A stretch of DNA of 56,733 nt, from positions 1-56,733 of IMG/VR virus record IMGVR_UViG_3300014822_000065; one strand, written 5' to 3'. A program made the position numbers and the translations under genes. Each line of letters starts with the position of its first letter. Within the stretch, counting starts at the first letter, position 1. Below, in pieces: positions 23,137-49,363 of this stretch. The notes below the pieces were generated by a model. That model had not been told where the DNA came from and ran no database searches. It saw only the letters and a program-made list of their open reading frames with translations. Source of the stretch: a virus (taxonomy: Duplodnaviria > Caudoviricetes).

Positions 23137-23330
23137 CGCCGCTTTGCGCTACGACCGCTGGGCTGATCGTGGTCGGTATATCGATCTGGAGTATGACGAC
23201 CTTGCATTCCAGTGGTCTCCTCTGGTTCGCGACGGCATGATTTGGGTGCCCTCGATGGTTCTGTGGTATTTCACCTTCATTTGCCCGGCATACGACCTGG
23301 TGATTGCCCTGTTTAACTAGGAGTTTACCC

Positions 23331-24716
23331 TTGGCTTTCCACGCTAAGCTTTCCGCCTCCAGTGCCAAACAGTGGATTAACTGTCCCAAGTCCATCGCCA
23401 TGGAGGCTCTTAACCCAAATCCTCGTGGCTCATCTATTTTTGCCATGGAGGGCACCGCGGCGCATCTCCTGTGTGAGCTCTACACCAGGGAGGGCATTCG
23501 CCCCGAGGAGTTTCTGGGGGATACCATCGTGATTTGGAACGATGACGCTTACCTGGAGAAAGACCTCGCCGAAGCCAAGCGTCGCGTTATCGCGGGCGAA
23601 GATGTGTCTCGCCGTCCCAAAAACCCGGATGCGCCCATTGAGGCGGAATTCCTTGTCGACCAGGACATGGTTGATGCCGTGGAGTATTTCGTGGCCGCAG
23701 TGGAAGCTGCTCGCGCCCGTCTTGATCCCCGAGGACGCGAAGAGCGCTCTGAACAATGGCTTGGTGAACTTGAGAAAGTTCATCCGCTGCTCGGCGGCAC
23801 CGCGGACTATATTGGCGTGGAAACTTTCGGTTGGGCAGAGCTGATCGATTACAAGCACGGAAGGGGCGTGCTCGTCGAGGTGTGGGACAATTACCAGCTC
23901 AAAATTTATGGATTGGGCGTTTTGCTGGAGTTCCCGGACTGCGAAGGGGTGCGCATGACCATCGTGCAGCCGCGCAAGGAACACGAAGACGGCCCCATTC
24001 GTTCGATCGAGTATACCCGCCAAGAGCTGATGGATTTCAAGGACGAGGTCCTCGTGCCGGCGGCCGAAGCAACCCAATCTGCGAATGCTGAGCTGAGGGC
24101 TGGCGATTGGTGCACCTTTTGTGATGCCAAAGCCTATATTGATGAAGACGGGGTATTCCGCGAATGCCCTGCCCTCGTTGAGGCCATGCAAGAAAGCGCC
24201 CAGTTTGATTTCTCCGACGACCCGCCGGAAGCAGGCCTCAGTGTGCCGACAAATGCCAATGACCTCGCAGAACGGGCGAAATGGCTCCCTGTCTTTGATA
24301 AATATGTAAAGGCTGTTGAGGGAGCAATCCAGCGAGAACTCCTTGCTGGTCGGCCTGTCGCGGGCAAGAAGCTTGTGCGAAAGCGGGCCAACCGGACCTT
24401 CGGGGTCTACATCGAGGAAATTGATGAACTGACGGACCAGGAAGACAGCTACTGGGAAACCATGAGTGAGGACGACGTAATTGCCATTATGGAGAGCGAG
24501 CTGGGTCTTCCTCGCGAGAAGTGTTTCATGCCTGGCAAGCTGAAGTCCCCCGCGCAGTTCGAGAAGATGGGCAAAGAGGTCAAGAAGCTCATTAGCGAGA
24601 TGGCCTACAAACCGGAGGGCGGCTTGACTGTGGCGGATGAAGACGATCCACGTCCGGCCGTCGAGGTGGCTGTCGGCGGAGCCACGGATTTCCCGGATGA
24701 TTTGGGAGATAACTGA
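23331..24716 (+). CDS. DUF2800 / Cas4-like PD-(D/E)XK exonuclease
   Basis: HAKLSASSAKQWINCP, EGTAAH, GTAD, IDYKHGRG, QLKIY, CTFC..K..CP; AGGAG RBS with TTG start. Confidence 0.88.
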   Translation: MAFHAKLSASSAKQWINCPKSIAMEALNPNPRGSSIFAMEGTAAHLLCELYTREGIRPEEFLGDTIVIWNDDAYLEKDLAEAKRRVIAGEDVSRRPKNPDAPIEAEFLVDQDMVDAVEYFVAAVEAARARLDPRGREERSEQWLGELEKVHPLLGGTADYIGVETFGWAELIDYKHGRGVLVEVWDNYQLKIYGLGVLLEFPDCEGVRMTIVQPRKEHEDGPIRSIEYTRQELMDFKDEVLVPAAEATQSANAELRAGDWCTFCDAKAYIDEDGVFRECPALVEAMQESAQFDFSDDPPEAGLSVPTNANDLAERAKWLPVFDKYVKAVEGAIQRELLAGRPVAGKKLVRKRANRTFGVYIEEIDELTDQEDSYWETMSEDDVIAIMESELGLPREKCFMPGKLKSPAQFEKMGKEVKKLISEMAYKPEGGLTVADEDDPRPAVEVAVGGATDFPDDLGDN

Positions 24717-30756: not shown

Positions 30757-30791
30757 AGAGGGTCCGGACATCTGTCCGGGCCCTCTTTTTT
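30757..30791 (+). terminator. Intrinsic terminator
   Basis: AGAGGGTCCGGACA...TGTCCGGGCCCTCT followed by a T-run. Confidence 0.8.
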
Positions 30792-30876: not shown

Positions 30877-31959
30877 ATGTCTACTGAAGTTCTTGAAGCT
30901 CCGGCTCCACTCGAAATCAACGGGGTTTTCTACCAAAACGTCTATTACCAGCCTATGGGAAAAGGCATGGGGGGAGACCGCAAGGGCCTCTATGAAATCA
31001 AAGACCCGCCAAACACCGGCTGGTCGCGTGCCCTGGTTATCTGGCCTGAGGACGACGCGGAAACCCGGGCTACAAGTTCCCGCAAAAAGAAGGCGGCCAA
31101 GCGGGTTACGGTTTTCTGTCCCTATACTCTACAAGCATATCAGGTGCGGTTCACCGCCCGCGAAGTCTCGGGTCAAAAGGCGTATCGCTTTACCCCCGAA
31201 CTGATTGACCGGCTTGCAGCTCTCATTGACCGCAACTGGAAAATGTATTCGAATTTTGGGTTCCATCGCGCTTATGATGTTGCAGCCCTGGTTTTGACAC
31301 GACTGGGCAAGCCGGTTCCCAGCTATATGCGGCCGGCAGACAAAAACTTGGAGTTTACGGAGACTGAGGTTCCCAATCGCAAAGGTAAGCCAGTTGCGGA
31401 GTCTCTGCTTCGACCAGTAAATCCCTCTAGCAAGCGAGGACAGGTTTGTGCCTTCTTTATGAAGAACGGCTCCGGCTCCTTGCGCGAGGCAATGGCCGTC
31501 TTCGATATGTCCCGCTCGGGCGTCCTAACGCATCTCCACGGCCTGCACAAATATCATGGCTTGGGCTACGTCCTTCAGGGCGATATGGCTACCGTCATGT
31601 TGCCGCCGGGGTGCACTGACCCGATGGCTGACGGTGCGCAAGCCGCGGAGCACGCCAAAATTGTGGAAGCCGCCGCGGTCAAAAAAGCGGGCAAACCGTG
31701 CAAGCCTACTGTGACAGCGCTGCCAGGGAAAGGCAAGCGTCGGGAAGTTGCCCTTGCTATGGTCGAGGAAGCCGCCATTGAGGACGTTGCCAAAAAGGTC
31801 GGCTGCACTGTTAACTCCGTTCGGTCACACCTTCACGACCTGCATACAAAACACGGGTTCGGTTATGAGTTGTCTCCGGACAAGTCACGTGGTAAGCTGA
31901 TCGTGCCGGAGGGGTGGACACCGGATTATGATCCCGACAACCTTGACCCACTAGCCTGA
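30877..31959 (+). CDS. Putative regulator with two winged-HTH repeats (ends DPLA)
   Basis: Internal duplication: KRGQV...SGVLTHLHGLHKYHGLGYVL and KRREV...NSVRSHLHDLHTKHGFGYEL. Confidence 0.7.
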   Translation: MSTEVLEAPAPLEINGVFYQNVYYQPMGKGMGGDRKGLYEIKDPPNTGWSRALVIWPEDDAETRATSSRKKKAAKRVTVFCPYTLQAYQVRFTAREVSGQKAYRFTPELIDRLAALIDRNWKMYSNFGFHRAYDVAALVLTRLGKPVPSYMRPADKNLEFTETEVPNRKGKPVAESLLRPVNPSSKRGQVCAFFMKNGSGSLREAMAVFDMSRSGVLTHLHGLHKYHGLGYVLQGDMATVMLPPGCTDPMADGAQAAEHAKIVEAAAVKKAGKPCKPTVTALPGKGKRREVALAMVEEAAIEDVAKKVGCTVNSVRSHLHDLHTKHGFGYELSPDKSRGKLIVPEGWTPDYDPDNLDPLA

Positions 31960-31968
31960 GGAGCAATC

Positions 31969-33069
31969 ATGGAACTCAAGTCACCTGCAACGTGGATAGA
32001 GAAGTTCTTGGCACTTGTCCACCAGTTCAATGCTGACATCATCGGTCTGCCAATTCCTGAGGAGCCTACGCGTCTTGACGTTGAGCGCAAGAAATGGGCG
32101 TTTGCGGCCCTCGACGAAGAGCTGCAGGAGTTCCTTTCGGCTGAAACTCTGGAAGACGAAGTGGATGCCCTTCTTGATTTGGCCTATTTTGCTCTCGGCC
32201 GTGTCATCGAAATGGGCGTTGTGCCCGGAGCCGCGTTCGAGGAAGTCCATGCCGCCAATATGACCAAGCGCCGGGGCAAGCTTTCCAAGCGGAAATACTC
32301 CAAAGGCTTCGACGCCGTAAAACCTGAGGGATGGACGCCTCCGAACCTGCTTCCGTATCTGGCTCTGGATCGCCGACAAGTGCTTGCGGCATATGAGGCA
32401 GCACTGTCTGAGCAAGAGGCTGCCGAAGTCGCACAGATGCCTGAGAACGAGCCGGGGAACAATAGAAAGCCGAAGTTGCTCGTGCTCGGTCACGCTCGGC
32501 ACGGCAAAGACACCGTGGCCGAAATCCTCCAGCAGGAATACGGCTTTACCTTTACGTCCTCCTCTCTTTTCTGTGCCGAGAAGGTGATTTGGCCGGCGGT
32601 CCACAATCACGGCGATGCTCTTGATCGTCATGAAAAAGCCGGATGCCCGGGCATGTCCACGGACGACCTTCACAATGAGCTGAAGATGATGCGTGAACGG
32701 GCCTATGACGATTATGAGGCTTGCTTTAAAGATCGGGGTAACTTCCGCACGGCCTGGTTCTCCCTGATTGCCGCGTATTGCTACCCGGAAAAAGAACGCC
32801 TTGCACGGGAAATCTTCGATGCTGGCAATGATGTCTATGTGGGCATTCGCAATAGACGAGAATACTACGCGGTTGTCAATTCTGGTATTGTTGACGGCGT
32901 GATTTGGGTAGACGCCAGTGATCGCGTCAAGCCCGAAAGCTTTGGGTCCTGCACAGTCGAGCCGTGGATGTCCAACTGGATCATTGACAACAATGGAACC
33001 GTCGAAGAGCTGCACCACAATGTGCACCAACTCATGTCTTATCTTGGCTTTGAAAGGAATGAAGTATGA
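31969..33069 (+). CDS. MazG-like dNTP pyrophosphohydrolase fused to a dNMP-kinase-like P-loop domain
   Basis: N-domain EELQEF...DALLDLAYF...EVHAANMTK...KPEGW; C-domain GHARHGKDT, YVGIR..RE, IWVDAS.R, IIDNNGT. Confidence 0.85.
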   Translation: MELKSPATWIEKFLALVHQFNADIIGLPIPEEPTRLDVERKKWAFAALDEELQEFLSAETLEDEVDALLDLAYFALGRVIEMGVVPGAAFEEVHAANMTKRRGKLSKRKYSKGFDAVKPEGWTPPNLLPYLALDRRQVLAAYEAALSEQEAAEVAQMPENEPGNNRKPKLLVLGHARHGKDTVAEILQQEYGFTFTSSSLFCAEKVIWPAVHNHGDALDRHEKAGCPGMSTDDLHNELKMMRERAYDDYEACFKDRGNFRTAWFSLIAAYCYPEKERLAREIFDAGNDVYVGIRNRREYYAVVNSGIVDGVIWVDASDRVKPESFGSCTVEPWMSNWIIDNNGTVEELHHNVHQLMSYLGFERNEV

Positions 33070-33356
33070 TTACCATGATCTATGGCCCGCAGGCCAGTGG
33101 CAAAACCCGCAACAAAGAAGCCCTGGCTCGCCAGTATGCCCATACGAACATTATCGACGGCGTGACGAGACAGCGCCGGTCTCGTAAGTTCTATGACGAC
33201 AGCGGGCGGACGCATACCGAAGTCCCGGCGGATGCACTGCTCCTCACTACCATGAGCCGGCAGCAGTGCTTGTCATTCCTGGCTAAGCATGAAATCACCA
33301 ATGCCACCGTCGTGTCGATCGACGAAGCTTTGGCGGAACTGGAGGCCAACGCATGA
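33066..33356 (+). CDS. Small P-loop protein
   Basis: IYGPQASGKT Walker A; 96 aa; coupled on both sides. Confidence 0.75.
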   Translation: MITMIYGPQASGKTRNKEALARQYAHTNIIDGVTRQRRSRKFYDDSGRTHTEVPADALLLTTMSRQQCLSFLAKHEITNATVVSIDEALAELEANA

Positions 33357-34294
33357 ATACCCGGTCCTTTCATGAGGTCTACTATGACCTCCTCACTGAT
33401 TTGCTTCATCGCGGGGTGACCGAAACCAACGCTCGAACGAAGACCCAAATCAAGATGCTCCAGGGTGCCTTTTCGTTCAAGCTGGACCTCAGCAACGGCA
33501 AGCTACCGATTGCAGGTAACCGGCGCTACTTCCCGCACGTTTCTGCGGCCGAGGTTGCCTGGCAGTTCATGGGCACGCGCGATCCGTCCTTCATTCTGAA
33601 GCATGCACCGAAGCTCTGGTCGAAGTTCGTGGAGACTGAGACCGTCGAGGAGGAGGACCGCGGCAACGGGATGCGCCCCGTCGAAAAGCAGGTGCTCAAG
33701 ACTGCCTACGGCTGGCGCTGGCGTGAAGCATTTGGCCGGGATCAGCTGGCTCTTGCCGTCAAGGAGCTGCGAGACAACCCGACAAACCGCCAGCTCTGGG
33801 TTCAGGCATGGGACCCGCGCAGCGACGGCCTTGGCGGCCCGCAGCCAAAAAACATTCCCTGTCCCATTGGCTTCTCTGTCTCGCGCTTCCAAAACGACAT
33901 CCATATGAGCGTGTTCGTCCGTTCCAGTGACGTGTTCGTCGGCCTTCCCTATGACGTCATGGCTTATGGCTTGACGCTGGATGCAATCGCTGCTTCGGTG
34001 GGGTGTCGACCAGCAACGTTGCACTTTACCCTTGCCCATCCGCATCTCTACGAGCCGCACTGGAATATGGCTCGGGCGTGCACGTTGGCCAACTGGAGCG
34101 CCGGTGAATGGCGTGAGCAGAAAGAGCTCGCTGGCGCCTCGACTTCGTGGGCCAACGATGCGCAGCCCGCGCTCCCGTGCTGGGGCATTGACGACATTCT
34201 CAGGGCCCCTGACAATTATGTCAGCGTCATGAAGAACTTGGCGGGGCGCACGCGGCAGAACTCCTGGAACCCTCTGCCGGTCGTTGTGGAGTAG
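33353..34294 (+). CDS. Thymidylate synthase-family enzyme with Asp at the specificity position (predicted dCMP methylase or hydroxymethylase)
   Basis: AYGWRWR, PTNRQ, catalytic IPC (Cys170), RSSDVFVGLPYD (Asp201), HLYEPH. Confidence 0.88.
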   Translation: MNTRSFHEVYYDLLTDLLHRGVTETNARTKTQIKMLQGAFSFKLDLSNGKLPIAGNRRYFPHVSAAEVAWQFMGTRDPSFILKHAPKLWSKFVETETVEEEDRGNGMRPVEKQVLKTAYGWRWREAFGRDQLALAVKELRDNPTNRQLWVQAWDPRSDGLGGPQPKNIPCPIGFSVSRFQNDIHMSVFVRSSDVFVGLPYDVMAYGLTLDAIAASVGCRPATLHFTLAHPHLYEPHWNMARACTLANWSAGEWREQKELAGASTSWANDAQPALPCWGIDDILRAPDNYVSVMKNLAGRTRQNSWNPLPVVVE

Positions 34295-34317
34295 AACACG
34301 GCTTATGGGGAAGCTAA

Positions 34318-34785
34318 ATGGACACATCTGGAAATAATACCTCTCACTGGGACGCAAGGTTCATGGAGCTGGCTCTTGTTGCGCGGTCTTGGACCAAGGG
34401 CTTAGGCGCTGGCGTGGATCGCGGCGTCGGGGCCTGCATCGTCTCTCCGAGCCGTCACCAGTTCTCCCTCGGCTACGCAGGTTTCCCGCGTGGCCTCCAG
34501 GACGAGGCTGCGCGGCTGCAGGAGCCCGAATACCGTATGTATCACACCGTCCATGCGGAGCTTAACGCCATTCTCAATGCCCGCTGCTCGGTGGAAGGCT
34601 GGACAATCTATGTTACAGAAGCCCCGTGTCACGATTGCGCCAATGCCATTGTGCAGGCCGGTATCAAACGAGCGGTAACCGGAGCACCCCGGCAGGACTC
34701 CAGTTGGTATCGCTCTCAACTTGAAGGCCGTGAGACCATGCGGGAAGCAGGCCTCATCGTCGATACTTGGGAGAAGCCCCTATGA
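34318..34785 (+). CDS. dCMP deaminase
   Basis: VGAC, HAELNAI and PCHDC zinc motifs, IVQAGIKR. Confidence 0.9.
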   Translation: MDTSGNNTSHWDARFMELALVARSWTKGLGAGVDRGVGACIVSPSRHQFSLGYAGFPRGLQDEAARLQEPEYRMYHTVHAELNAILNARCSVEGWTIYVTEAPCHDCANAIVQAGIKRAVTGAPRQDSSWYRSQLEGRETMREAGLIVDTWEKPL

Positions 34786-35297
34786 AACTCATCATGGCGG
34801 TCAGCAAAGACGGGTTTGTAGCCCGTGGGTCCGACGATGATATGACTTGGACTGGACCGATCGACAAGGCGGTATTCAAACTGCTGACAAGCACTAGCGA
34901 CGTTCTTGCCGTATCGGCCAAGACCTTGCAGTATATGCCGAATACGCTCCCCGGGCGCGGCAAGCTCTATGCCCTGTCGACCGATCCGCGGCGCGGGATC
35001 GCTCTGGAAGACTTTGCGGGCATGTTCCCCGACGCTTGGTTGCTGGGCGGTCAAGAGCTGGGCCTGTATGCAATGAAAAACGGGTTCGTGAGCAAAGCCT
35101 ACATTTGCCGGGTCCTCGACAAGGAGCTGGGTATTGGCAATCCCAACGCGATCGACGATCAACTGACGGGTTATCTTGCCCGCCGGCGCTACTCCAAGGG
35201 CCGCGGCTCTTGGTGGGACGAAGCGCTGCGGGTGAAGATCGATCAGTCGCTGGTCGAAGTTTGGGAACGCGGGAGCGCCGTTGCAGATGACGTCTAA
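34782..35297 (+). CDS. Dihydrofolate reductase-like protein
   Basis: MKLIMAVSKDGFVA...MTW...DKAVFKLLT, LPGR and WLLGG follow the DHFR pattern. Confidence 0.75.
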   Translation: MKLIMAVSKDGFVARGSDDDMTWTGPIDKAVFKLLTSTSDVLAVSAKTLQYMPNTLPGRGKLYALSTDPRRGIALEDFAGMFPDAWLLGGQELGLYAMKNGFVSKAYICRVLDKELGIGNPNAIDDQLTGYLARRRYSKGRGSWWDEALRVKIDQSLVEVWERGSAVADDV

Positions 35298-35757
35298 GAC
35301 CGCCGAGAAAAACCTGTGGTATCGAATGCGGGAGGCTATGAAGGTCTTTCGCGCCGACGTTCATTACACCCGCATTGAAAACTCTATTTCGGACGGCTTT
35401 CCCGACGTAGAAGTTAGCCTTATGTGGGAAAAGGTCAATTACTCTGCAACGTTTGAGTTGAAGACCACGCATCGACCAGCGCATCTTGGAACCAACGTGG
35501 ACGCTTCCCATATTCGCATGGGTCAAATCCGCTGGCTAAAGAAGCGGTGGGCAGTCCGGGGTTCCGCCTGGATACTGATCCAGGTAGGATCAAAGAGAGA
35601 CCTCGCTTGTTACCTGATCCCAGGCTATCTTGCCGAGGAAGCGCAACAGGGCAAACCGGAGAGCTGGTATATCGCCAACTCTGTCTGTGACCCAAATGAC
35701 CCACTGGACCGCATCGTGCGGATTGGCTGCACGTGGAGATGGCTGGATGAAAATTGA
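35287..35757 (+). CDS. PD-(D/E)XK nuclease (VRR-NUC / Holliday junction resolvase-like)
   Basis: RIEN...GFPD...FELK...GQIRW motif. Confidence 0.8.
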   Translation: MTSKTAEKNLWYRMREAMKVFRADVHYTRIENSISDGFPDVEVSLMWEKVNYSATFELKTTHRPAHLGTNVDASHIRMGQIRWLKKRWAVRGSAWILIQVGSKRDLACYLIPGYLAEEAQQGKPESWYIANSVCDPNDPLDRIVRIGCTWRWLDEN

Positions 35758-36079
35758 AACCGCTATTGCAGGAGCCTCGTTTCGTGAAGAAGGGGTTGAT
35801 ATTGTTTTCGCGCTGAAAGTGGGGCAACGCTTTCGCTTGGAAGCTGAGCCGTCTAACCCATATGACCCAAATGCGGTTAAAGTATTGGTGGATGATTTCG
35901 TTTACGGGCGGAGAAAACCACGGACTTACCATCTCGGCTATGTTCCGCGTAAGTGGTCCGGCACCGTAGCTGCAGCCCTCAGAAATACCCGACTCCATGT
36001 CTGGGCGGTCAAGGAGAACGATTTGTGGGGAACATTTTCCGTTATTTGGGAAGATGCCTCTAAAGACCCACTGGCCTAA
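35747..36079 (+). CDS. HIRAN-domain protein (ends DPLA)
   Basis: IAGASFR, LEAEPSNPYDPNAVKV, LGYVP; GGAGA RBS. Confidence 0.85.
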   Translation: MKIETAIAGASFREEGVDIVFALKVGQRFRLEAEPSNPYDPNAVKVLVDDFVYGRRKPRTYHLGYVPRKWSGTVAAALRNTRLHVWAVKENDLWGTFSVIWEDASKDPLA

Positions 36080-36174: not shown

Positions 36175-36633
36175 ATGTCCATGTACCTTAGCTGCACTGT
36201 TCCCGTCAAAAAATCTCTTGACGGTTATACTACCATTTTGGAAGCTACGCCGGAAGTGCTTAGCCGTCTTATTACCTCCTGTGCCAAAGACGGCAGCAAA
36301 GCAAGCGAGGACGCCGTGCTTATGCTGTTCATAAACGGGGCTGAACAAATCGGGAAAAACGGCGTGCGCTGGCAGCGCGTTCAAAAGCCTCTCAACTTCG
36401 CGCCCTGTCCCACGCACTGTGACATCACTGGTGAACCCCTCGGTTCGATCATGTATGACGGCAAGACCATTCACGGGTCTTGGGCCTGCATGAGCGAACG
36501 CGGGTGGGAGCGAGAAGGGTGCGGCCGGGTAGGACCTGGTTTCGCTCAGAAATACCGTCGCAACGAAGAAGGCCAGTTCTACTTGTCTGAGGGCATGATT
36601 TCCAAGCCGAAGCCGTATCGGGTTGCCGCATGA
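36175..36633 (+). CDS. Hypothetical protein with conserved C-terminal domain
   Basis: AAAGGAG RBS; CDI...YDGKT..GSWACM...G.G..QKY motif. Confidence 0.75.
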   Translation: MSMYLSCTVPVKKSLDGYTTILEATPEVLSRLITSCAKDGSKASEDAVLMLFINGAEQIGKNGVRWQRVQKPLNFAPCPTHCDITGEPLGSIMYDGKTIHGSWACMSERGWEREGCGRVGPGFAQKYRRNEEGQFYLSEGMISKPKPYRVAA

Positions 36634-37010
36634 CCCGCATCAACTGTATACCTCCTTCCGAGCTAACTGGGCCGCACCTTGTAGCCGAGTATCGGGAGCT
36701 CCCGCGTATTTTTGGCATGGTGCGCAAGATAGTGGAGCGCGGGATAACTGATCCCGCGCTTTGCACCATTCCGTCGGCGTATTGCATGGGCACTGGTCAT
36801 ATGAAGTTCTTCACGGACAAGCTTGGCTATCTTGTCAAGCGCCAAAAAGCCCTAATCGCCGAAATGCAGGCGCGAGGCTATCAGCCCAGCCACCTCAATC
36901 CGGACAGTCTGCTGGCCGGCATCCCTGAAGCCTTTCATGGCAACTGGGAACCGGACGCCGCTGCAATTGCCATATCCCGAGCACGTATTAAGGAGCGATT
37001 AAATGGCTAA
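36630..37010 (+). CDS. denV: Pyrimidine-dimer DNA glycosylase (T4 endonuclease V-like)
   Basis: MTRIN N-terminus, HLVAEYRELPRIF, GTGHMKFF.DKL.YL..R, RARIKER. Confidence 0.9.
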   Translation: MTRINCIPPSELTGPHLVAEYRELPRIFGMVRKIVERGITDPALCTIPSAYCMGTGHMKFFTDKLGYLVKRQKALIAEMQARGYQPSHLNPDSLLAGIPEAFHGNWEPDAAAIAISRARIKERLNG

Positions 37011-37994: not shown

Positions 37995-38081
37995 CTTTGA
38001 AAGCCGGCAGGTCGCACTGCCGGTTTTCCCGTTTAGCGACATGCGCTAGTTTAAAATTCTCCGTATAATATGAGGAAGCTC

Positions 38082-41000
38082 ATGAAACATCCGGCAATTG
38101 CGAAACAGATTTGGGACAAGAAATACCGCTTCAAAGACTCCAAAGGCGAACCGCTGGACCACTCGGTTCACGACACCTGGGCGCGTATCGCCAATAGCCT
38201 TGCGTCTGTCGAAGACAACTCGAACGTCTTCTATGAAGCGTTCTACAAGGCCCTCGAAGACTACCAGTTCCTTCCCGCCGGTCGTATCATTGCAGGTGCC
38301 GGCACCGGCCGTCAGGTTACCTTGTTCAACTGCTACGTCATGGGCACTATTCCTGACAGCATGGACGGCATCTTTTCAATGCTCCGTGAGGCCGCTCTCA
38401 CAATGCAGCAAGGCGGCGGGATCGGCTATGACTTCTCCACAATCCGCCCCAAAGGCGCCGAAGTAAAGGGCGTCGCCGCAGACGCCTCGGGACCTTTGAC
38501 GTTCATGGACGTGTGGGACGCCATGTGCCGGACTGTCATGAGCGCAGGCGAACGTCGAGGCGCCATGATGGCGACCATGCGTTGCGATCACCCGGACATT
38601 GAGGAGTTCATCGAGGCCAAGCGAGACGCTTCCCGTCTTCGCATGTTCAACCTCTCCGTGCTGGTGACCGACGACTTCATGGAAGCTGTTCGCATGGGCG
38701 CAGAGTGGGATTTGTGGTTCAGGCACAAGGACGGCGAAGAGCGCATTTACAAGACGGTCAACGCTCGGGAGCTGTGGAACAAGATCATCCAAACAACCTA
38801 CGATGTGGCCGAACCGGGGGTCATCTTCATCGACCGTATCAACCAGTTGAACAACTTGGGCTACTGCGAAACCATCTCTGCGACAAACCCCTGTGTCCCG
38901 GGTGATACCCCAATTCTTACCCTTGATGGATACCAGCCAATCCAAGACCTTATTGGCCAGGAAACGTCCGTCTGGAACGGCAAGAGCTGGGAGACTGTAA
39001 CCCCGTTCAGCACCGGCTTCAATCCACTCGTGCGCGTTACTCTGTCCAATGGCCAAGAGCTTATCTGCACTCCGGCGCATGACTTCGTTTTGGAAGACGG
39101 AACCAAAGTGCCGGCGGACGAGCTTGTTGTGGGCCAAGCATTGCAGAAGGCTGAGCATGAAGGCTATCAGGGCTCGGGCTCTTTGGCAAACGCCTATAGC
39201 CAGGGCTTCTATTCTGGCGACGGCACCAAGAACGCCAAGAAGAGCTGGGTCTACTCGTCCAAATATGAAGTCATCCCGCGCCTATGCGGCTCGGTGGCCG
39301 AAAACGAGCACCCCGAACGCCGGTTCCGTGTTTGGAGCCACGGGACAATGTTGGCCAAAGATTATGTGCCTATGAATGAGTGCCTTGAAGACCGCATCGA
39401 ATGGTTCACCGGCCTGCTTGACGCCAACGGGACTTTGGCCATAGCCTCCAATGGCGCACCAAGTCTTCAGCTCACGTCTATGGATGAAGAGTTCATGCGC
39501 CGGGTCCAGCTGTTTCTGACCGGCTTGGGCGTGCCTGCGCATCTGGGCGTTGAGCGGCATAAAGAAGCCAATTGGTCCAGCTCTCATACGGCGGCGCGTA
39601 TTTCCATTTCAACGCCTGGGGTGCGCCGATTGCAGGAGCTGGGCTTGAAGCCCTCGCGCCTGAAACTCCCTGAAGGTTATCCGGTTCATAACCGGGCGCG
39701 CAAGCTTCGGGTCGTATCTGTGACAGACCTGGGGCGTAGCGAAGAGACCTTCTGTTTCACTTCCAAAGAAACGGGTATGGGAGTATTCAATGGCATTTTG
39801 ACCGGGCAATGCGGGGAACAACCTCTGCCGCCGTATGGGGCATGTCTTCTGGGCTCCATTAATTTGTCGCGTCTTGTCCAAGCAGCATTCACCAAACAAG
39901 CCGAGCTGGATTTGGACCGCCTCGACCAGCTGGTTTCCACGGCTGTGCGGATGATGGACAACGTGATCGACGTTTCTCTATTCCCTGTGCCTCAGCAGAA
40001 AGAGGAAGCTCTCGCCAAGCGCCGTATCGGTCTTGGCGTGACTGGCCTCGCCGACGCTCTGGCTATGTGCCGTATCAAGTATGGCACTGCTGAGGCGGCA
40101 AGGCAGGTCGAGGAGTGGATGGAAGCCATTGCTCTGTCTGCCTATCAGGCGTCGATCGAACTGGCGAAGGAGAAAGGTGCTTTCCCGCTGTTCGACGCCG
40201 ACGGCTTCCTGCGTAAGGGCTCATTTGCTGCGGAGCGCCTGCCGATCGAAATGCAGGATGATATTCGCCAATATGGCATTCGCAATGCTCTCCTGACTTC
40301 CATTGCACCGACTGGGACTATCAGCCTGTATGCCGGCAACGTGTCGTCAGGCATCGAGCCTATCTTTGCCTATGGCTACACCAGGAAGGTCCTTCAGGCC
40401 GATGGCAGCAAAGTTGAGGAGGAAGTCGTCGACTATGCCGTCGCTCTCTACCAGAGCATGTATCCAGGTGAAGAACTCCCCGACTACTTTACGACGGCTC
40501 AGGACCTCAAGCCCAGCGAGCATCTTCGTATGCAGGCGGCAGCGCAACGCTGGGTCGACAGTTCCATCTCGAAGACGATCAACGTTCCAGTGGACATTTC
40601 CTTTGAGGAGTTCCGCGACGTCTACGAGGTGGCCTATGAACAGGGCTGTAAAGGCTGCACGACTTACCGTCCCAATGACGTGACTGGATCGGTGCTGGAA
40701 GTGAAGACTGACAAGCCCGCGAAGATCAAAGCACCGGCCGACCGGCCAAAGCGTCTGGAAGGAGCCACCTACAAGCTCAAGTGGCCAAATGAGCCGCACG
40801 CTTTCTACATCACCTTTACGGACCAAGTGGACTCCTCTGGTCGTCGCCGACCCTTCGAGGTATTCATCAATTCCAAGAGCGTTGAGCACTACCAGTGGAT
40901 TGTTGCCTTGACCCGCATGATCTCGGCAGTTTTCCGCCGGGGAGGCAATGTGGCTTTCGTGGCCCGGGAGCTCCAAGAAGTCTTCGATCCAAAGGGTGGT

Positions 41001-41246
41001 GCCTTTATGGGCGGGGCATACGTGCCTTCGCTTCTTGCGGCCATCGGCGGGATCGTAGCTGAGCACATGCAATCAATTGGCTACGGGGATATGAAGGGAG
41101 TCGCCCTTGCCGACCAGAAGCCTCCGATCGATCTTGAATGGACCCAAATTCCGCAGCACCAGTGCAAGGACTGCGGGTCCTACAACGTGAAGAAAGAAAG
41201 CGGCTGCGAGGTGTGCAAAGACTGCGGTTCAAGCAAGTGCGGCTAA
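38082..41246 (+). CDS. nrdJ: Class II (B12-dependent) ribonucleotide reductase with intein and C-terminal TSCPD/Zn-ribbon region
   Basis: FLPAGRI, TLFNC, GGGIGYDFS, NP-(intein)-CGEQPL, RRIGLG, IAPTGTIS, DSSISKT, CxxC..CxxC tail; no nrdB in the window. Confidence 0.92.
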   Translation: MKHPAIAKQIWDKKYRFKDSKGEPLDHSVHDTWARIANSLASVEDNSNVFYEAFYKALEDYQFLPAGRIIAGAGTGRQVTLFNCYVMGTIPDSMDGIFSMLREAALTMQQGGGIGYDFSTIRPKGAEVKGVAADASGPLTFMDVWDAMCRTVMSAGERRGAMMATMRCDHPDIEEFIEAKRDASRLRMFNLSVLVTDDFMEAVRMGAEWDLWFRHKDGEERIYKTVNARELWNKIIQTTYDVAEPGVIFIDRINQLNNLGYCETISATNPCVPGDTPILTLDGYQPIQDLIGQETSVWNGKSWETVTPFSTGFNPLVRVTLSNGQELICTPAHDFVLEDGTKVPADELVVGQALQKAEHEGYQGSGSLANAYSQGFYSGDGTKNAKKSWVYSSKYEVIPRLCGSVAENEHPERRFRVWSHGTMLAKDYVPMNECLEDRIEWFTGLLDANGTLAIASNGAPSLQLTSMDEEFMRRVQLFLTGLGVPAHLGVERHKEANWSSSHTAARISISTPGVRRLQELGLKPSRLKLPEGYPVHNRARKLRVVSVTDLGRSEETFCFTSKETGMGVFNGILTGQCGEQPLPPYGACLLGSINLSRLVQAAFTKQAELDLDRLDQLVSTAVRMMDNVIDVSLFPVPQQKEEALAKRRIGLGVTGLADALAMCRIKYGTAEAARQVEEWMEAIALSAYQASIELAKEKGAFPLFDADGFLRKGSFAAERLPIEMQDDIRQYGIRNALLTSIAPTGTISLYAGNVSSGIEPIFAYGYTRKVLQADGSKVEEEVVDYAVALYQSMYPGEELPDYFTTAQDLKPSEHLRMQAAAQRWVDSSISKTINVPVDISFEEFRDVYEVAYEQGCKGCTTYRPNDVTGSVLEVKTDKPAKIKAPADRPKRLEGATYKLKWPNEPHAFYITFTDQVDSSGRRRPFEVFINSKSVEHYQWIVALTRMISAVFRRGGNVAFVARELQEVFDPKGGAFMGGAYVPSLLAAIGGIVAEHMQSIGYGDMKGVALADQKPPIDLEWTQIPQHQCKDCGSYNVKKESGCEVCKDCGSSKCG
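38892..39809 (+). mobile_element. 306-aa intein with LAGLIDADG homing endonuclease in nrdJ
   Basis: Starts CVPGDT after ATNP; block B CTPAHDF; motifs QGFYSGDG and TGLLDANG; ends FNGILTGQ before the active-site Cys of CGEQ. Confidence 0.9.
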
Positions 41247-43630: not shown

Positions 43631-44866
43631 CTAGTCAAAAACGATATACAACGAGGTAACAACGCCTTGAGCCGGCCCTCCGGCGGTGTTGCAGATCATG
43701 TTGAGAGCGTCTCCCGCGGAAAAGGAAAGCGGGCTGCTTGAAAAATCGGTATATCCAGTTTCCACGCCCGAGCCGCTATAGTTGACTGCCACTTGGTAGC
43801 TGGTATTTTCCACTTTATTGACGGCAACCGATACGATACAGTTACCGCTGGCCCCAGCAGTGATAGACATGCCAGCCGCGACTATCTTTCCGGCTTGGGG
43901 CATTACCGCTCCGGCAGTGGTCATAGAGCCGTCGCCCATGGACATAAGGGCGCCTACGGACATATTGCCGTCTTCTTCCCCACATATAACAATTGCATGG
44001 CCGCTGAGCGGGCCGTTGCCAGTATTGAAGCCCTGAGGCATCGTGACTTCGGCGGTAGTCTCGTCAATCACCATAGCCGTAGTGAACGAGCTGCCCACTT
44101 TAATGGTAAAATCATCATTACCGAGGAGCCCAAGAAGCGCTTTGGTGGAGAAGCCCGTTTGGAACGTCATGCTGGCGTTATTGCCGCTCGCGCCCTTATT
44201 ATATTTCATGTCAATACTGCCACCCGAATTGAGCAACAGATTGGTGCCGTAGAAAGCAAAGGCATTAGTAGCATCAGCCGAAGAGCCCCCGACGCCAAGG
44301 CCGTATTCATTGACCTCCAACTTTTGGCTGCCGTCAATCAGCACCTGGAACGTGCTGCCGGCGTCCACGTTGTTATAGTCAACAGAGATTTGGAAATTGA
44401 CCCCGTTGGTCTGAATAAGGGTATCGCCACTGATGTCGGTGTCCCCGAAACGGATCGACGGCGAAGCTTCTTCCAAGGCAAGGTCACCGGTCATCGTTCC
44501 GCCAGCAAGCGGAAGATAGAGGGTACCGATCATAGAACTAAGGGTGCTCCAGCCGCCGTCATAGAAATAGAGTTCACCCTCGTCCTCAACCCAGCAGAGC
44601 CAACCAGTATTGGGAGCCCTGAAGACCCAGCCATCGCCGTCATAAGTGGCGATCTGATTGTCTTTCGAGGCCCAGTCGCCAGTAGCAGACGCGCCCACGA
44701 TATACCGGTCTCCTGTGGTCGGAGAGCCCGGCGGAGCAGTAAGGTCCTTGTCTGCAACGGCCAGTTGAACAAGGGTGTCGAGGTAGAACAAGGCCTCATT
44801 GTGGGTCACATGCTTCTGAGACTGGCTTGCAGTCAGCTCAGGCAAGCTGAGATGGGTTGTGGTCAT
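43631..44866 (-). CDS. DUF2793-family tail fibre / receptor-binding protein
   Basis: QSQKHVTHNEAL..LD.LVQ, PPGSPTTGDRYIV, GW.F..P..GW motifs. Confidence 0.85.
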   Translation of the reverse strand: MTTTHLSLPELTASQSQKHVTHNEALFYLDTLVQLAVADKDLTAPPGSPTTGDRYIVGASATGDWASKDNQIATYDGDGWVFRAPNTGWLCWVEDEGELYFYDGGWSTLSSMIGTLYLPLAGGTMTGDLALEEASPSIRFGDTDISGDTLIQTNGVNFQISVDYNNVDAGSTFQVLIDGSQKLEVNEYGLGVGGSSADATNAFAFYGTNLLLNSGGSIDMKYNKGASGNNASMTFQTGFSTKALLGLLGNDDFTIKVGSSFTTAMVIDETTAEVTMPQGFNTGNGPLSGHAIVICGEEDGNMSVGALMSMGDGSMTTAGAVMPQAGKIVAAGMSITAGASGNCIVSVAVNKVENTSYQVAVNYSGSGVETGYTDFSSSPLSFSAGDALNMICNTAGGPAQGVVTSLYIVFD

Positions 44867-47800
44867 CGGCTATAAGTCTCCTCTGCGGGAATGCCTCGGC
44901 CCACTGCGGCGCTCATTTGATAGACCCTGAATTTCAAGGATGTAGTTTGAGCGGAGCCGAAGTCAGATACCTGCATTGCCTCTGTATAAGTATACGCCGG
45001 TGTCGTCAGGCCTGTAACCTCGCGAACGACGGTCGAACCGTCAAGAATTTCCAGCTCGTATTCCTCCGCTTCCTCGTTCAATGGGACACTCGCCAGTTCC
45101 CATGGATCACCGTCAAAACGCGTGCGCCGGACCCAGCTTAGTTCAATATCATTATTTACGCTGAGGTTCCAAGTAGCTTTCAAATGCACCGGGGCATAGG
45201 GCTTTTTGGCCATTGCTTCGTGCGTGAAGGTGGTTTCCAAGTAGGCATTATCGTCATCGATGCTCTTGTAGGCGCTACCAAAGCGCAGGGTGTGGGTCAC
45301 GTCACGATCACCGGCCGTGAGCGGCAGATATGGGGCAGTGGACGGATTGATAGAGAATTGGTTCTCCAACAGCACAAAGGCGTTCCCGGCAGAGAACGCC
45401 GCTTCGTTCATAACCCATTCCGTGCCAAGTTGACCCCGAATAAGATTGGACAGAACGTAATTCCCGTTGCTGTCGAGAGTTGCGGTCTGATACTGGAAAA
45501 TTTCCCAATGCCCATTGTCATTTTGCATAGCAACGACGTTGTCCCCGTTCAGCACACGGATTTCACTGTCCGCCGAGGGCATTGCGCCGCTAAACGGGCT
45601 TACGGTAATAGTCTGGTTTCGAAGCCAGACACCCGTTTTGCCCGTGCCAACTGCATCGACAAGGGTGCCCATGACGTTTTCCAAGTTCAAGCTGCGCTTA
45701 AGCACCCAGTCTTCGGTTCCCGCGTCGGGATTTTCATCCAAATAGACCGCAACGGTGCCAGGCCAAGGGGAAGCGTAAACTGCCAGCCTCGGCGACCAAT
45801 GAGACGGTTCGTCGCCGGAGTAGAGCGGAATGTCTAGCACAAACAATTCCGGGAAGCCCGGGACATTGGTCAGAATACTGGACTTCGTTTGCGGCGGATA
45901 AACCGGCAAGGAATACAGGCTGAGGTCAAATGATTGGAACTGCACTTCACGGAACTCGCCAGTATCAATCGACTGGATGCGAGCTTGACCAACTCGACCC
46001 TCATCACCAATTGGGAAGGTAATGCCGTCGCCGGGGTCCAGCTTAAACATGGACGGCGGCAGGTTCACCGCCCCGGTCTCACGAGCCATCCAAGCCTGAT
46101 GAAGCAGGCTGTCGGCAAGTCCGCGAACGTAATCGGGGGCCAACGAAATGGGAAGGCGCACGTTGGCCGTATCTTTGTTGGTCGTCTGATGGCGCTTGGC
46201 GTCCAGTGAGGAAACTTCATAGTCGTTTCCTGCGTCAATGAAGTCCACTACTACAGACTTTGGCAATTCAGAGGTCTGAGTGCGTGTGATGGTAAAGCCG
46301 GTCGGGTCGCTGTCAGTGGAAACAAAGCTATCGGTAGCAAGGGCCGTAAGTGCTGTGGTGGATTTCAGGGCAAACTTGATCTTGCCTTCACTTTCGAAAG
46401 CATCGAATTGGAAACCGGTCATGAGCGAGCCGATCGCGTCCCGCACTGCGGTAATGCTGTCGATGAAATAGCCTTTCACAAGGCTTTGTGTGCCGTTCAG
46501 CCGCTCGGTGTCATAGTCTGTTACTCCGACGCTTTCACAGAGCTCCTCGATAAGCCGGGGGAGCGCAGGATACGCAATCCGGCCGGTCATCCAATGACCG
46601 TAGCGCCAAAGGTCGCCGTCACTCCAAACATCAAGGCGGGCCGGGTAATCTGGATAAGGACGAGCGTCCCAGCACCAAAGGTGCATATCATTGATGTCCA
46701 GCATCCCGCTTGGCGAATTATCGCGCCAATATTGAAGCATAGCTTCGGCATAAACACGGGAAATATACTCGTCCTGTAGCCCGTTCGAATAATATGGCAA
46801 AAGGCTTTCTGACGATTTAGGATCGTAAAAGACATTGGGCTGATTTGTGCCCTTGTCTACACAAGGACAGCCAAACTCAGTGAACCAAATAGGCTTAGAA
46901 CCGGGGACATAGGCTGTTGATGAACTACTTTCTACTCCGCCAGGACGATTGTAATGGGCGTTACTCCACCAGTTTCGAATATCCTTTTGACGGAATACCC
47001 AAGGCTTGCCATATGCGCTATCTACGATAGGCGTGCGGGTTTGACTATCACGATCAGCTTGACTGGCGTAATACCAGTCATAATATTCTCCACCTTCAAT
47101 ATTTGACTTGAGATAATCAATATTGTGCGGAGTAACAATCCCGTTATCTGCGTCATAGTCAAGATGGGATGAACCGTCACGCCAATCGGAAAGAGGCATA
47201 TAATTATCAATCCCGATAAAATCGATATTGCTATCTGCCCAGAGTGGATCTAGATGGAAATAAACATCATTGGAACCGTCAGACGGGCGATGGGAGTGGT
47301 ATTCCGACCAGTCTGCGGCGTAACCGATTTTGGTCCCGGAACCGAGGATGCCGCTAACCGTTGCCGCCAGGGTTTGAAGATGCCCAATTGCAGGATACGT
47401 CGAAGCGCTTGACCTGATAGTCGTCATACCAACCATCTCGGTGCCGATGATGAACGCGTCTACGCCGCCCGCGTCTGCGCAGAGCTGGGCGTAGTGCTCA
47501 ATGAAACGGTTATAGCCCCAAGTCCGGGTAAAAAAGGTTCCGACTTGAGTTGCCGCGGCGGCAGTCTTGTCCACGGTGCCCGCGTATCCGGCCGCAGGGC
47601 TACAAGTGATCCTACCGCGCCAGGGGAACACTGGCTGGCCAAGGGTAGCCGCGTTGTCGCTATACGGGTTAGGGAGCACATTGCCACTCTCAATATGCAT
47701 GAAGGTAAACGGGTAAAAAATAACCCGGATGCCACGCGCCTTCAACCACTGAATAGCCTCGATCACCACGTCATCAGAGGGAGTGCCTCCGTAGATTGGG

Positions 47801-48918
47801 TTGCCCTCATTGTCTCGACCAACTTGTGGAATATCAGCATCAGAACGGACATACCCTGCAACATTCCATTCGCGAGGAGTTACAACGCCGTCCCGGTCTT
47901 TATATTCTACCATTGGCTTGATCTGGCATTCACCAATGCGCAGGTCATCTCCAAACCAACCAACAACCAGTGTAATTGCATCCAGATTAGGCTGGAAAGC
48001 AATCAATTGTTTTATAGAGCGGACAAAATCGCTTTTACCCGTTTGATTGTGCATGTTCATGTTTTGAGCGGAGATACGATCACCGCTACGCGAGGGAAGG
48101 CTCAGGGTATCACCGGCAAGATTGGTAAATGAACCGCCAGGAAAGAAGTTATTTAACACACTGCCTGAGGCATTCTGCAGGGTATAAATATCCGTTCCAT
48201 AAACAAACTCGCCGGAACCCGGGATGAGACAAAAAGACCGAGCAATATTGGAAATGTCGTCCGGATCATCGGTTTCAATAGGACAAATGATTTCTGCGGT
48301 CACCTGCGGAATGCGATTACCAAAGTCCTCAAGCTGGAGGTCTTCGAAGACAATATAGCAGGTTCCGCGAAAAGCAGGAGTATTTTCAACGCCCTCAATG
48401 CCCTGGATAACGGAGTCCGGCTGCTGAGTCTCTGTGCCGGAGTAAAATGTGCTCTGGATCGTGGTAAGATCAATTTCTTTTCCATCCATCCACAGGCGCC
48501 CGAGGGTCGTCCGCTCATTACCCTCGCCGAAGGCCACGGCAAATGAGCAAGAATAGGTATACGTGGTGGTTTCCACCTTCTGGCCGCCGCCGCCGCCTTT
48601 GCCCCCGACTTCTTCGGTCTCCGTCGTCTTAGTTTCTTTGAAACGGGAGGACCAGATAAGATTACCCCCGACGCGCATCATCCCGTAGAGACGACCCACA
48701 ACGGCGCCCTCGGTGGACTGCATGACAGTGATTTCTTGGAGACGCGCACCTTCGTTACGGACTGCAGGCTGCAAGGAAGCAATGATGAGGCTATCAACAT
48801 AGGAACCAACGGTGGCGCCAATCATACCGCCAATGGCCGCAGCGCTGACGCCCAGGACACCCCCGCCAATCGATCCGCCGATCGCAGTGCCTACGATACC
48901 AAGGGCAAGAGTGGCCAT
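44863..48918 (-). CDS. GTA-like baseplate 'megatron' / host-specificity protein (RcGTA g15-like)
   Basis: 1351 aa; PAFRG, LIPGSGEF, GGTPSD, YAADWSEY, GIDNYMP, KPIWFTEFG, WDARPYP TIM-barrel motifs. Confidence 0.92.
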   Translation of the reverse strand: MATLALGIVGTAIGGSIGGGVLGVSAAAIGGMIGATVGSYVDSLIIASLQPAVRNEGARLQEITVMQSTEGAVVGRLYGMMRVGGNLIWSSRFKETKTTETEEVGGKGGGGGQKVETTTYTYSCSFAVAFGEGNERTTLGRLWMDGKEIDLTTIQSTFYSGTETQQPDSVIQGIEGVENTPAFRGTCYIVFEDLQLEDFGNRIPQVTAEIICPIETDDPDDISNIARSFCLIPGSGEFVYGTDIYTLQNASGSVLNNFFPGGSFTNLAGDTLSLPSRSGDRISAQNMNMHNQTGKSDFVRSIKQLIAFQPNLDAITLVVGWFGDDLRIGECQIKPMVEYKDRDGVVTPREWNVAGYVRSDADIPQVGRDNEGNPIYGGTPSDDVVIEAIQWLKARGIRVIFYPFTFMHIESGNVLPNPYSDNAATLGQPVFPWRGRITCSPAAGYAGTVDKTAAAATQVGTFFTRTWGYNRFIEHYAQLCADAGGVDAFIIGTEMVGMTTIRSSASTYPAIGHLQTLAATVSGILGSGTKIGYAADWSEYHSHRPSDGSNDVYFHLDPLWADSNIDFIGIDNYMPLSDWRDGSSHLDYDADNGIVTPHNIDYLKSNIEGGEYYDWYYASQADRDSQTRTPIVDSAYGKPWVFRQKDIRNWWSNAHYNRPGGVESSSSTAYVPGSKPIWFTEFGCPCVDKGTNQPNVFYDPKSSESLLPYYSNGLQDEYISRVYAEAMLQYWRDNSPSGMLDINDMHLWCWDARPYPDYPARLDVWSDGDLWRYGHWMTGRIAYPALPRLIEELCESVGVTDYDTERLNGTQSLVKGYFIDSITAVRDAIGSLMTGFQFDAFESEGKIKFALKSTTALTALATDSFVSTDSDPTGFTITRTQTSELPKSVVVDFIDAGNDYEVSSLDAKRHQTTNKDTANVRLPISLAPDYVRGLADSLLHQAWMARETGAVNLPPSMFKLDPGDGITFPIGDEGRVGQARIQSIDTGEFREVQFQSFDLSLYSLPVYPPQTKSSILTNVPGFPELFVLDIPLYSGDEPSHWSPRLAVYASPWPGTVAVYLDENPDAGTEDWVLKRSLNLENVMGTLVDAVGTGKTGVWLRNQTITVSPFSGAMPSADSEIRVLNGDNVVAMQNDNGHWEIFQYQTATLDSNGNYVLSNLIRGQLGTEWVMNEAAFSAGNAFVLLENQFSINPSTAPYLPLTAGDRDVTHTLRFGSAYKSIDDDNAYLETTFTHEAMAKKPYAPVHLKATWNLSVNNDIELSWVRRTRFDGDPWELASVPLNEEAEEYELEILDGSTVVREVTGLTTPAYTYTEAMQVSDFGSAQTTSLKFRVYQMSAAVGRGIPAEETYSR

Positions 48919-48921
48919 CCT

Positions 48922-49353: not shown

Positions 49354-49363
49354 TTCTGGCCTC

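Follow-up and report, generated by a model that had tools for sequence, protein, structure and literature searches.

The stretch of DNA analysed in this study (hereafter, the window) covers the whole of the IMG/VR virus record IMGVR_UViG_3300014822_000065, 56,733 bases long and with a completeness estimate of 93%. On its plus strand, between positions 31969 and 35297, lies a block of five closely packed genes around a homologue of thymidylate synthase (TS), which the first-pass annotation, made from the sequence alone, had read as a set for making 5-methyl-dCMP. Open reading frames (ORFs) for all five were found at these positions, with small gaps or overlaps between them. The features of the block, with protein lengths in amino acids (aa), are as follows:

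31969-33069, plus strand: ORF of 366 aa, a fusion of a MazG domain and a nucleoside monophosphate (NMP)-kinase-fold domain
31969-32436, plus strand: MazG-like all-alpha NTP pyrophosphohydrolase domain, residues 1-156 of the fusion (PF01503)
32461-33069, plus strand: P-loop NMP-kinase-fold domain, residues 165-366 of the fusion (from model and motifs)
33066-33356, plus strand: 96-aa protein with the Walker A motif GPQASGKT (phrog_14685, 5.4e-8), overlapping both neighbours by 4 bases
33353-34294, plus strand: TS homologue of 313 aa (PF00303), with the codon of Cys170 at 33860-33862 and that of Asp201 at 33953-33955
34318-34785, plus strand: zinc-dependent enzyme of the dCMP-deaminase family, 155 aa (PF00383)
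34782-35297, plus strand: divergent dihydrofolate reductase (DHFR), 171 aa from ATG 34782 (phrog_13578), in an ORF of 176 aa that opens at TTG 34767

The closest records to the window were those of the Roseobacter phages RDJL3, RDJL6, RDJL Phi 1 and RDJL Phi 2 and of Ruegeria phage Tedan, the RDJL3 record showing 73% nucleotide identity to the window across 80% of the cluster. The RDJL phages are the nearest cultured relatives, with TS proteins 64-68% identical to that of the window; the second-nearest are those of the Xp12, PaMx74 and AXL1 group, with TS identities of 38-44% over the full length.

The TS homologue matched PF00303 (Thymidylat_synt) with 113.2 bits (cut-off 24.3). Its Cys170 and Asp201 (GAC, 33953-33955), singled out in the first-pass annotation, were verified by script and by an alignment of the window protein with E. 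coli ThyA, T4 gp42 and the proteins of RDJL3, Xp12 and PaMx74. In this alignment C170 and D201 share their columns with C146 and N177 of ThyA and with C148 and D179 of T4 gp42, in agreement with the equivalence that the same annotation had given. The window TS was 40.6% identical to that of Xp12 over 308 aa (E 9e-78), 42.4% to that of PaMx74 and 67% to that of RDJL3. Its active-site signature C170/P171/N167/D193/D201 is identical to C165/P166/N162/D188/D196 of Xp12, and relative to ThyA the protein is changed as in Xp12, with Asp for N177, Pro for H147 and Asn for L143, D169 being retained. The catalytic residues R28, E67, W89, Y119, R146, C170, R190, S191, D193, H231 and Y233 are kept. The window protein thus combines the ThyA fold and catalytic Cys with Asp at the N177 position and a non-acidic residue at L143 next to a conserved D169. 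It does not match the canonical ThyA signature (Asn177, His147), having Asp201 and Pro171 instead, nor the signature of T4-type hydroxymethylases (acidic L143, short C-terminus), having Asn167 where T4 gp42 has Asp145.

In the eLife MetaGPA study (PMC8670742), positions 177 and 147 are the two most associated with modified-cytosine contigs, and classical Asn-to-Asp mutants are cited in which TS became a dCMP methylase. An acidic residue at L143 is given as a mark of 5-hydroxymethyl-dCMP synthases and MilA, and D169N as a mark of 5-hydroxy-dCMP synthases, in a 2026 NAR paper (PMC13326640).

To place these residues in a wider family, 1.84 billion representative proteins were scanned with phmmer in an unbiased manner. 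The scan gave 6010 matches, of which the best 150 were taken; the 130 of at least 240 aa were used and the 20 shorter ones dropped. Among these best full-length matches the N177 position was occupied by Asp in 128 of 130, the H147 position by Pro in 104 and the L143 position by Asn in 102, with Asp or Glu at L143 in none of the 130, and the D169 position was Asp in all 130. Since Asp is found in 128 of the 130 relatives, Asp201 is neither a chance substitution nor an error. A FastTree phylogeny of the 130 relatives plus six anchors, a comparison with Xp12, T4 gp42 and ThyA that the first-pass annotation had called for, separated ThyA and T4 gp42 from the Asp-type family with an SH-like support of 94 and grouped the window with RDJL3 (support 100). 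The deep branches were poorly resolved, and T4 gp42 stood on a very long branch. From these comparisons the TS homologue of the window is predicted to be a deoxycytidylate 5-methyltransferase (5-methyl-dCMP synthase).

The same block is found in phages with a known DNA composition. The genes of both Xp12 and PaMx74 run from DNA polymerase through helicase, small protein, conserved hypothetical protein, MazG-type hydrolase, TS homologue, dCMP deaminase and DHFR to hypothetical protein, as they do in the window, and the orientation downstream of the DNA polymerase and helicase is also the same in Xp12. BLASTP identities between six window proteins and the corresponding proteins of Xp12 and PaMx74 were 33-51%. 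An alignment-based scan yielded 80 related viral loci, an earlier single-protein scan having yielded 3. Among the 80, MazG was found in 37, the deaminase in 32, DHFR in 30, the downstream protein in 27 and the upstream protein in 26. Wherever these neighbour genes were found, their strand and order were as in the window; in the remaining, more distant loci of the 80 they gave no single-sequence match. Since the fetch patterns of these loci include the Asp motif GLPYD, the 80 loci are unusable for counting Asp. The dCMP methylase reading is supported by homology on both counts, the synteny with Xp12 and PaMx74 and the shared TS signature.

The flanks of the block contain the following features:

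30757-30786, plus strand: terminator-like hairpin upstream of the block, a 13-pair stem followed by a T run
30877-31959, plus strand: first gene of the syntenic block, a conserved 360-aa protein, function not assigned (phrog_11422, 2.9e-72)
35287-35757, plus strand: downstream neighbour, a syntenic 158-aa protein, probably a RecU/Hjc-like PD-(D/E)XK nuclease

From the gene at 30877 onward, successive intergenic distances are 9, -4, -4, 23, -4, about -11 to -17, and -11 bases. The hairpin at 30757-30786 is the likely 5' boundary of the transcription unit; no other terminator-like site was found on the plus strand after it up to 38200, and a terminator is annotated at the equivalent place in the PaMx74 record. 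The 360-aa protein was 38% identical to PaMx74 gp55, 34% to an Xp12 hypothetical protein and 82% to its RDJL3 homologue. For the 158-aa downstream protein, identities were 35% with an Xp12 hypothetical protein and 33% with that of PaMx74, and Pfam PDDEXK_9 matched at E 0.0094. A sequence search of the PDB gave no match, and leads from the protein atlas pointed to RecU/Hjc. A role as a nuclease specific for cytosine-containing DNA was considered for this protein and found unsupported, the leads indicating a RecU/Hjc-type resolvase. The gene belongs to the syntenic block and lies outside the assigned pathway.

The first gene of the predicted pathway codes for the fusion protein. An AlphaFold 2 (AF2) model of its 366 aa (pLDDT 89) showed two domains with a disordered linker, residues 157-164, between them. 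The PRA-PH/MazG family PF01503 matched residues 23-97 with 43.2 bits (cut-off 21.3). The N-terminal 120-145 residues or so were 51% identical to the Xp12 protein annotated as 'hydrolase' and 48% to the PaMx74 pyrophosphohydrolase, and the acidic residues E50, E51, E54, D66 and D70 were invariant across 42 homologues. The domain is predicted to act as a dCTPase and/or dUTPase, providing dCMP and eliminating dCTP. A relationship to T4 gp56 was also tried, with an hhalign probability of 0.5% and no meaningful match.

In the second domain, the sequence likeness to T4 gp1 is confined to the P-loop GHARHGKDT and the C-terminal motif IDNNGTxEEL. Modelled alone, this domain reached a pLDDT of 94.2 and a pTM of 0.86. 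The alignment by hhalign with T4 gp1 covered the last 20 residues, that is, the C-terminal motif (probability 17.7%), and a profile search of PDB sequences returned weak matches to the P-loops of dephospho-CoA and adenylate kinases only. One fusion homologue (P0102) bears a precomputed PF21448 match. The C-terminal half of the fusion can be assigned with confidence to the NMP-kinase-fold P-loop proteins, and it is a candidate 5-methyl-dCMP kinase. The first-pass annotation had called the protein a fusion of MazG with a dNMP kinase: the MazG part and a P-loop domain of NMP-kinase fold were upheld, and the dNMP kinase identity is tentative, the Pfam DNMK score lying below its cut-off and the TM score at 0.36-0.40.

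The fusion is widespread, with 304 protein matches at E <= 1e-5, many of them on contigs of about 60 kb; among the best 120 of the 304, nearly all cover at least 93% of the query. No homologue of the kinase domain was found anywhere in the Xp12 or PaMx74 records. The C-terminus of the MazG protein was of the kinase type in 13 of the 37 related loci with MazG and of the Xp12 type in 16. The MazG proteins of Xp12 (L002:5210-5983) and PaMx74 (L003:5246-5983) end in a domain of about 110 aa without a Pfam family, and among the related loci this domain and the kinase domain were mutually exclusive. Two copies of the TS homologue were co-folded with the fusion in search of a T4-like metabolon, and the score of 0.00, against a mark of 0.32, is evidence neither way.

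The small P-loop protein encoded between the fusion and the TS homologue had been counted as part of the cluster. It is present in the window, and it is not a conserved part of the cassette, being found in one of the 80 related loci (L012). Its Pfam matches were weak only (AAA_22 0.011, TK 0.031), and its atlas neighbours were clusters of P-loop proteins of about 90 aa without a common family. The gene was dropped from the pathway because no Pfam family matched the 96-aa protein above its cut-off and because the alignment showed no counterpart of it in RDJL3, Xp12 or PaMx74.

The deaminase matched dCMP_cyt_deam_1 (PF00383) with 65 bits (cut-off 25) and was 36.6% and 36.8% identical to the enzymes of Xp12 and PaMx74, respectively. 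Its best PDB match was the PBCV-1 dCMP/dCTP deaminase 7FH4 (2.8e-17). The zinc motifs HAE and PCxxC are present, and Trp130 stands in the column of Trp128 of the Xp12 enzyme. According to a PNAS 2025 paper (PMC12088426), the XP-12 deaminase specifically converts 5-methyl-dCTP (5mdCTP) to dTTP, with Trp128 at the methyl group, a conversion that the paper credits to Wang and Ehrlich 1982 and Kuo et al. 1982. Genes of the dCMP-deaminase family that adjoin such TS genes include 5-methylcytosine (5mC)-selective enzymes that turn 5mdCTP into dTTP, and one of them, mSCD-B5, is strictly dependent on the triphosphate and prefers 5mC (bioRxiv 10.1101/2024.12.05.627091). As judged from these homologues, the window deaminase is predicted to act on 5-methyl-dC nucleotides, most likely converting 5mdCTP to dTTP.

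For the DHFR, the match to phrog_13578 ('dihydrofolate reductase') had an E-value of 1.3e-37 and the best PDB match was the DHFR 6CXM (4.8e-5), with the active-site Asp column conserved. Identities were 41.6% with the Xp12 protein and 48.6% with that of PaMx74. The AXL1 DHFR, stated to be about 91% identical to that of Xp12, raised the minimal inhibitory concentration of trimethoprim for E. coli from <1 to >256 (PMC9206674). The earlier description of the gene as DHFR-like is supported by the PHROG, PDB and homologue comparisons; its ORF opens at TTG 34767, and its start is most likely ATG 34782, giving 171 aa, as in the relatives.

Six-frame scans of the record found no second PF00303 match, ThyX, trimeric dUTPase, TET/JBP or C5 DNA methyltransferase, and a Pfam scan of 58 ORFs found no glycosyltransferase or DNA methyltransferase. 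The absence of glycosyltransferase and TET/JBP genes noted in the first-pass annotation holds in these scans.

What the cassette does in relatives is documented for Xp12 above all. Its DNA contains 100% 5mC and no cytosine (C) by liquid chromatography-mass spectrometry (PMC7653180, Table 1), in line with the replacement of C by 5mC that the first-pass annotation had cited for this phage, and both Xp12 and PaMx74 are stated to replace C wholly with 5mC (NEB preprint, bioRxiv 10.1101/2024.12.05.627091). In the same preprint, the Xp12 TS homologue gave 5-methyldeoxycytidine (5mdC) in E. coli DNA when T4 gp1 was co-expressed, as did five of seven Asp-type TS homologues linked to deaminases, and PRA-PH and DNA_pol_A domains co-localised with TS/deaminase genes. 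Its authors propose that 5mdCTP deamination supplies dTTP and makes another TS unnecessary. The DNA of AXL1 resisted GC-site restriction enzymes and withstood all but five of the 31 enzymes (PMC9206674).

Judged by homology and gene order, the block is probably an Xp12-type cassette that would serve the pre-replicative replacement of C by 5mC together with a dUMP-free supply of thymine nucleotides. The MazG-like domain would hydrolyse dCTP, and perhaps dUTP, to the monophosphate, feeding dCMP and keeping dCTP from DNA. The TS homologue, with Asp201 reading the amino group of cytosine, would then methylate dCMP with methylene-tetrahydrofolate to 5-methyl-dCMP and dihydrofolate, a step strongly suggested by homology and by the active-site signature shared with the assayed Xp12 enzyme. 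The DHFR, a homologue of which is functional, would recycle the dihydrofolate from the methyl transfer to tetrahydrofolate. The fused P-loop domain may phosphorylate 5-methyl-dCMP, and the nucleoside-diphosphate kinase of the host would complete 5-methyl-dCTP for incorporation by the family A DNA polymerase. Some of the 5-methyl-dCTP would be turned into dTTP by the deaminase, as by those of Xp12 and mSCD-B5, and this deamination would compensate in a phage without a dUMP-methylating TS. The first-pass annotation had offered deamination by a route bypassing dUMP as one fate of 5-methyl-dCMP. Such a route is documented for the Xp12 cassette, and in the relatives studied the substrate is the triphosphate, 5mdCTP giving dTTP, and not the 5-methyl-dCMP that had been proposed.

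Several findings weigh against this interpretation. The best Foldseek matches of the MazG domain were to the DR2231 MazG-like dUTPase (E 2e-5, TMt 0.59-0.71), and since the closest solved structure is a dUTPase, hydrolysis of dCTP by this domain is only assumed. The best Foldseek match of the kinase domain was the T4 dNMP kinase gp1 (1DEK, E 2.5e-4), with a TM score of only 0.36-0.40 and with dephospho-CoA, adenylate and cytidylate kinases close behind, and Pfam DNMK (PF21448) scored 15.9 bits against a cut-off of 27.1, over the P-loop only. The DHFR_1 family of Pfam gave the DHFR 19.2 bits, under its cut-off of 25. In the TS homologue, Gln147 (33791-33793) occupies the position of Arg127, the second arginine of the phosphate-binding pair in ThyA; this Gln is shared with RDJL3, whereas Xp12 and PaMx74 have Arg, and the 130 relatives comprise 88 with Gln, 32 with Arg and 10 with His at this position. 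Two of the seven Asp-type TS homologues gave no 5mdC in E. coli (bioRxiv 10.1101/2024.12.05.627091). The presence of 5mC in RDJL-type phages was not reported in the literature searched, for the window phage the interpretation stands on homology, and since the record is an estimated 93% complete, the phage may have a gene outside it.

Since the exclusion of dCTP hinges on an assumed dCTPase and the structure that the MazG domain matches best is that of a dUTPase, the cassette might be a dUMP-independent route to thymine nucleotides only, the virion DNA keeping C or being partly substituted; in a phage with no dUMP-methylating TS or ThyX, the deaminase route would be required anyway. This reading is rather unlikely. 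The relatives with the cassette and a reported DNA composition are Xp12, with its measured 100% 5mC, and PaMx74, whose C is stated to be replaced by 5mC, and a pyrophosphohydrolase with a fused kinase would be costly if 5-methyl-dCTP were not destined for DNA. The chemistry of the TS homologue can also be questioned, given that Asp at the N177 position is common to T4 gp42 and the product is unreadable from this Asp alone. A gp42-like dCMP hydroxymethylase, leading to DNA with 5-hydroxymethylcytosine or a derivative of it, is nevertheless improbable: the L143 position is Asn as in Xp12 and not Asp or Glu as in T4-type 5-hydroxymethyl-dCMP synthases and MilA, and the 313-aa window protein has a long C-terminal extension that is missing from T4 gp42 (246 aa). 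T4 gp42 is moreover distant in the tree and not among the best 60 of 121 PDB matches (E up to 0.001), a DHFR is present, and neither a glycosyltransferase (58 ORFs) nor TET/JBP (six frames) was found.

The relatives are annotated 'thymidylate synthase' in public records, and deaminase, TS and DHFR are the classical dTMP set as well, in which dCMP deaminase would give dUMP, TS would give dTMP and the Asn-to-Asp change would be merely tolerated. Such an ordinary operon is very improbable in view of Asp in 128 of the 130 relatives, of the replacement of His147 too, and of the 5mdC produced by the Xp12 orthologue (bioRxiv 10.1101/2024.12.05.627091). TS homologues with Asp at N177 can show unexpected chemistry (PMC13326640), and another C5 product such as 5-hydroxy-dCMP, as in RB69 and DLP3, was also considered. 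It is hardly to be expected here, as the diagnostic D169N is missing, Asp193 being kept in the window and Asp occurring in 130 of 130 relatives, and as no arabinosyl- or glycosyltransferase genes were found among the 58 ORFs scanned. Because of the residue signature of the TS homologue, hydroxymethylation, an ordinary TS and another C5 product are all disfavoured, and the Xp12-type cassette for 5mC replacement is preferred.

The pathway itself is already described in relatives, and the idea of the first-pass annotation is sound yet not new. Papers of 1982 on the thymidylate route are cited in the literature, and the gene assignments date from 2020-2024. The IMG/VR survey of the preprint may already cover RDJL-type contigs (bioRxiv 10.1101/2024.12.05.627091). 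Since the pathway is established, the finding opens no new question. The new points are modest: 5mC is predicted for a group of cultured marine phages, and the fusion of MazG with a kinase-fold domain is put forward as a candidate 5-methyl-dCMP kinase gene. We suggest tentatively, at somewhat less than an even chance, that in RDJL-type roseophages and their uncultured kin, the window phage included, 5mC fully replaces C, and that the fused P-loop domain is a dedicated 5-methyl-dCMP kinase. In that case a single protein would break down dCTP and also channel the methylated monophosphate selectively toward DNA, the kinase and Xp12-type domains being alternative partners of MazG (13 versus 16 of 37 loci). 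The RDJL phages, annotated as having an ordinary thymidylate synthase set, would carry fully 5-methylated cytosine, and if this is true, it would bear on restriction, on sequencing and on analyses that rely on methylation, for these phages as well as for marine viromes. The fusion also offers a concrete candidate gene for the 5-methyl-dCMP kinase step, for which there is no recognisable gene in Xp12 or PaMx74. The deaminase and the TS homologue would be an additional natural 5mC-nucleotide deaminase and dCMP methylase for the development of enzyme tools, as in the 2024 preprint.

A dCMP methyltransferase of Xp12 was reportedly described by Feng, Tu and Kuo in 1978, and an XP-12-induced 5-methyl-dCMP kinase is said to have been described by Wang, Huang and Ehrlich in 1982. 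Beyond the likenesses given above, Xp12 (Bosavirus, Mesyanzhinovviridae) differs from the window in that its MazG protein (257 aa) has another C-terminal domain and its genome lacks the kinase domain of the window. It also differs by Arg instead of Gln at the R127 position of E. coli TS, whereas the window has the additional 96-aa P-loop gene and tail genes of the gene-transfer-agent (GTA) type, as in roseophages. PaMx74 and Stenotrophomonas phage AXL1 (Pamexvirus/Bradleyvirinae group) have the same cassette, with the Xp12-type C-terminal domain of MazG instead of the kinase fusion. In RDJL3 the MazG-kinase fusion is 77% identical to that of the window and the Asp/Pro/Asn signature recurs in the TS; there is no 96-aa P-loop gene, and an unrelated 88-aa gene sits between TS and deaminase. 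The RDJL records label these genes 'thymidylate synthase' and 'Cof hydrolase', and the text of the RDJL Phi 1 genome paper makes no mention of thymidylate, deaminase, methylation, restriction or Cof.

Systems of the mSCD-B5 type share the co-localised dCMP_cyt_deam_1, Thymidylat_synt, PRA-PH and DNA_pol_A domains (bioRxiv 10.1101/2024.12.05.627091), and the closest solved structure is PBCV-1 7FH4 for mSCD-B5 as for the window deaminase. The T4 set (gp56 dCTPase, gp42 dCMP hydroxymethylase, gp1 dNMP kinase, cd and frd) follows the same stepwise logic, in which dCTP is destroyed, dCMP is modified at C5, the modified monophosphate is phosphorylated and deamination serves thymidylate supply. T4 differs in that hydroxymethylation (Asp at L143, short C-terminus) is followed by glucosylation and a true TS (td) is present separately, whereas the window has a single TS homologue, which is of the methylating type, and the scans given above found no transferase in it.

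Elsewhere in the window the gene content is consistent with a siphovirus: there are GTA-like tail genes, a family A DNA polymerase, a prim-pol primase-helicase, a ligase, a Cas4-like nuclease and a class II ribonucleotide reductase. Genes of the GTA type for tail and baseplate lie at 44863-50892 on the minus strand and include GTA_TIM (457 bits), Rcc01698_C, DUF2460 and phage BR0599; such genes had previously been noted for the RDJL roseophages too. The Prim-Pol/DUF5906 primase-helicase is encoded at 16845-19226 on the minus strand (141.9 bits), and the DUF2800/PD-(D/E)XK Cas4-like nuclease at 23304-24716 on the plus strand (194.9 bits). A Cas4-like nuclease in the Xp12 group is also remarked on in the AXL1 paper (PMC9206674). 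Just downstream of the cassette, at 36630-37010 on the plus strand, a T4 endonuclease V-like pyrimidine-dimer DNA glycosylase (Pyr_excise, 54.6 bits) is adjoined by a HIRAN-domain protein at 35747-36079.

The class II (B12-type) ribonucleotide reductase at 38070-41246 on the plus strand has 1058 aa, versus about 756 aa in the RDJL3 gene. The additional sequence contains a LAGLIDADG_3 match at residues 444-506 (25.9 bits, cut-off 22.5) and a weak intein-splicing match, and it is an intein with a homing endonuclease within the reductase barrel. No RNA runs containing the stretch were listed. The sole public run that contains it, a DNA run (share of words 0.97) and probably the source sample, is labelled as a hot springs metagenome; the nearest cultured relatives, the roseophages, are marine.

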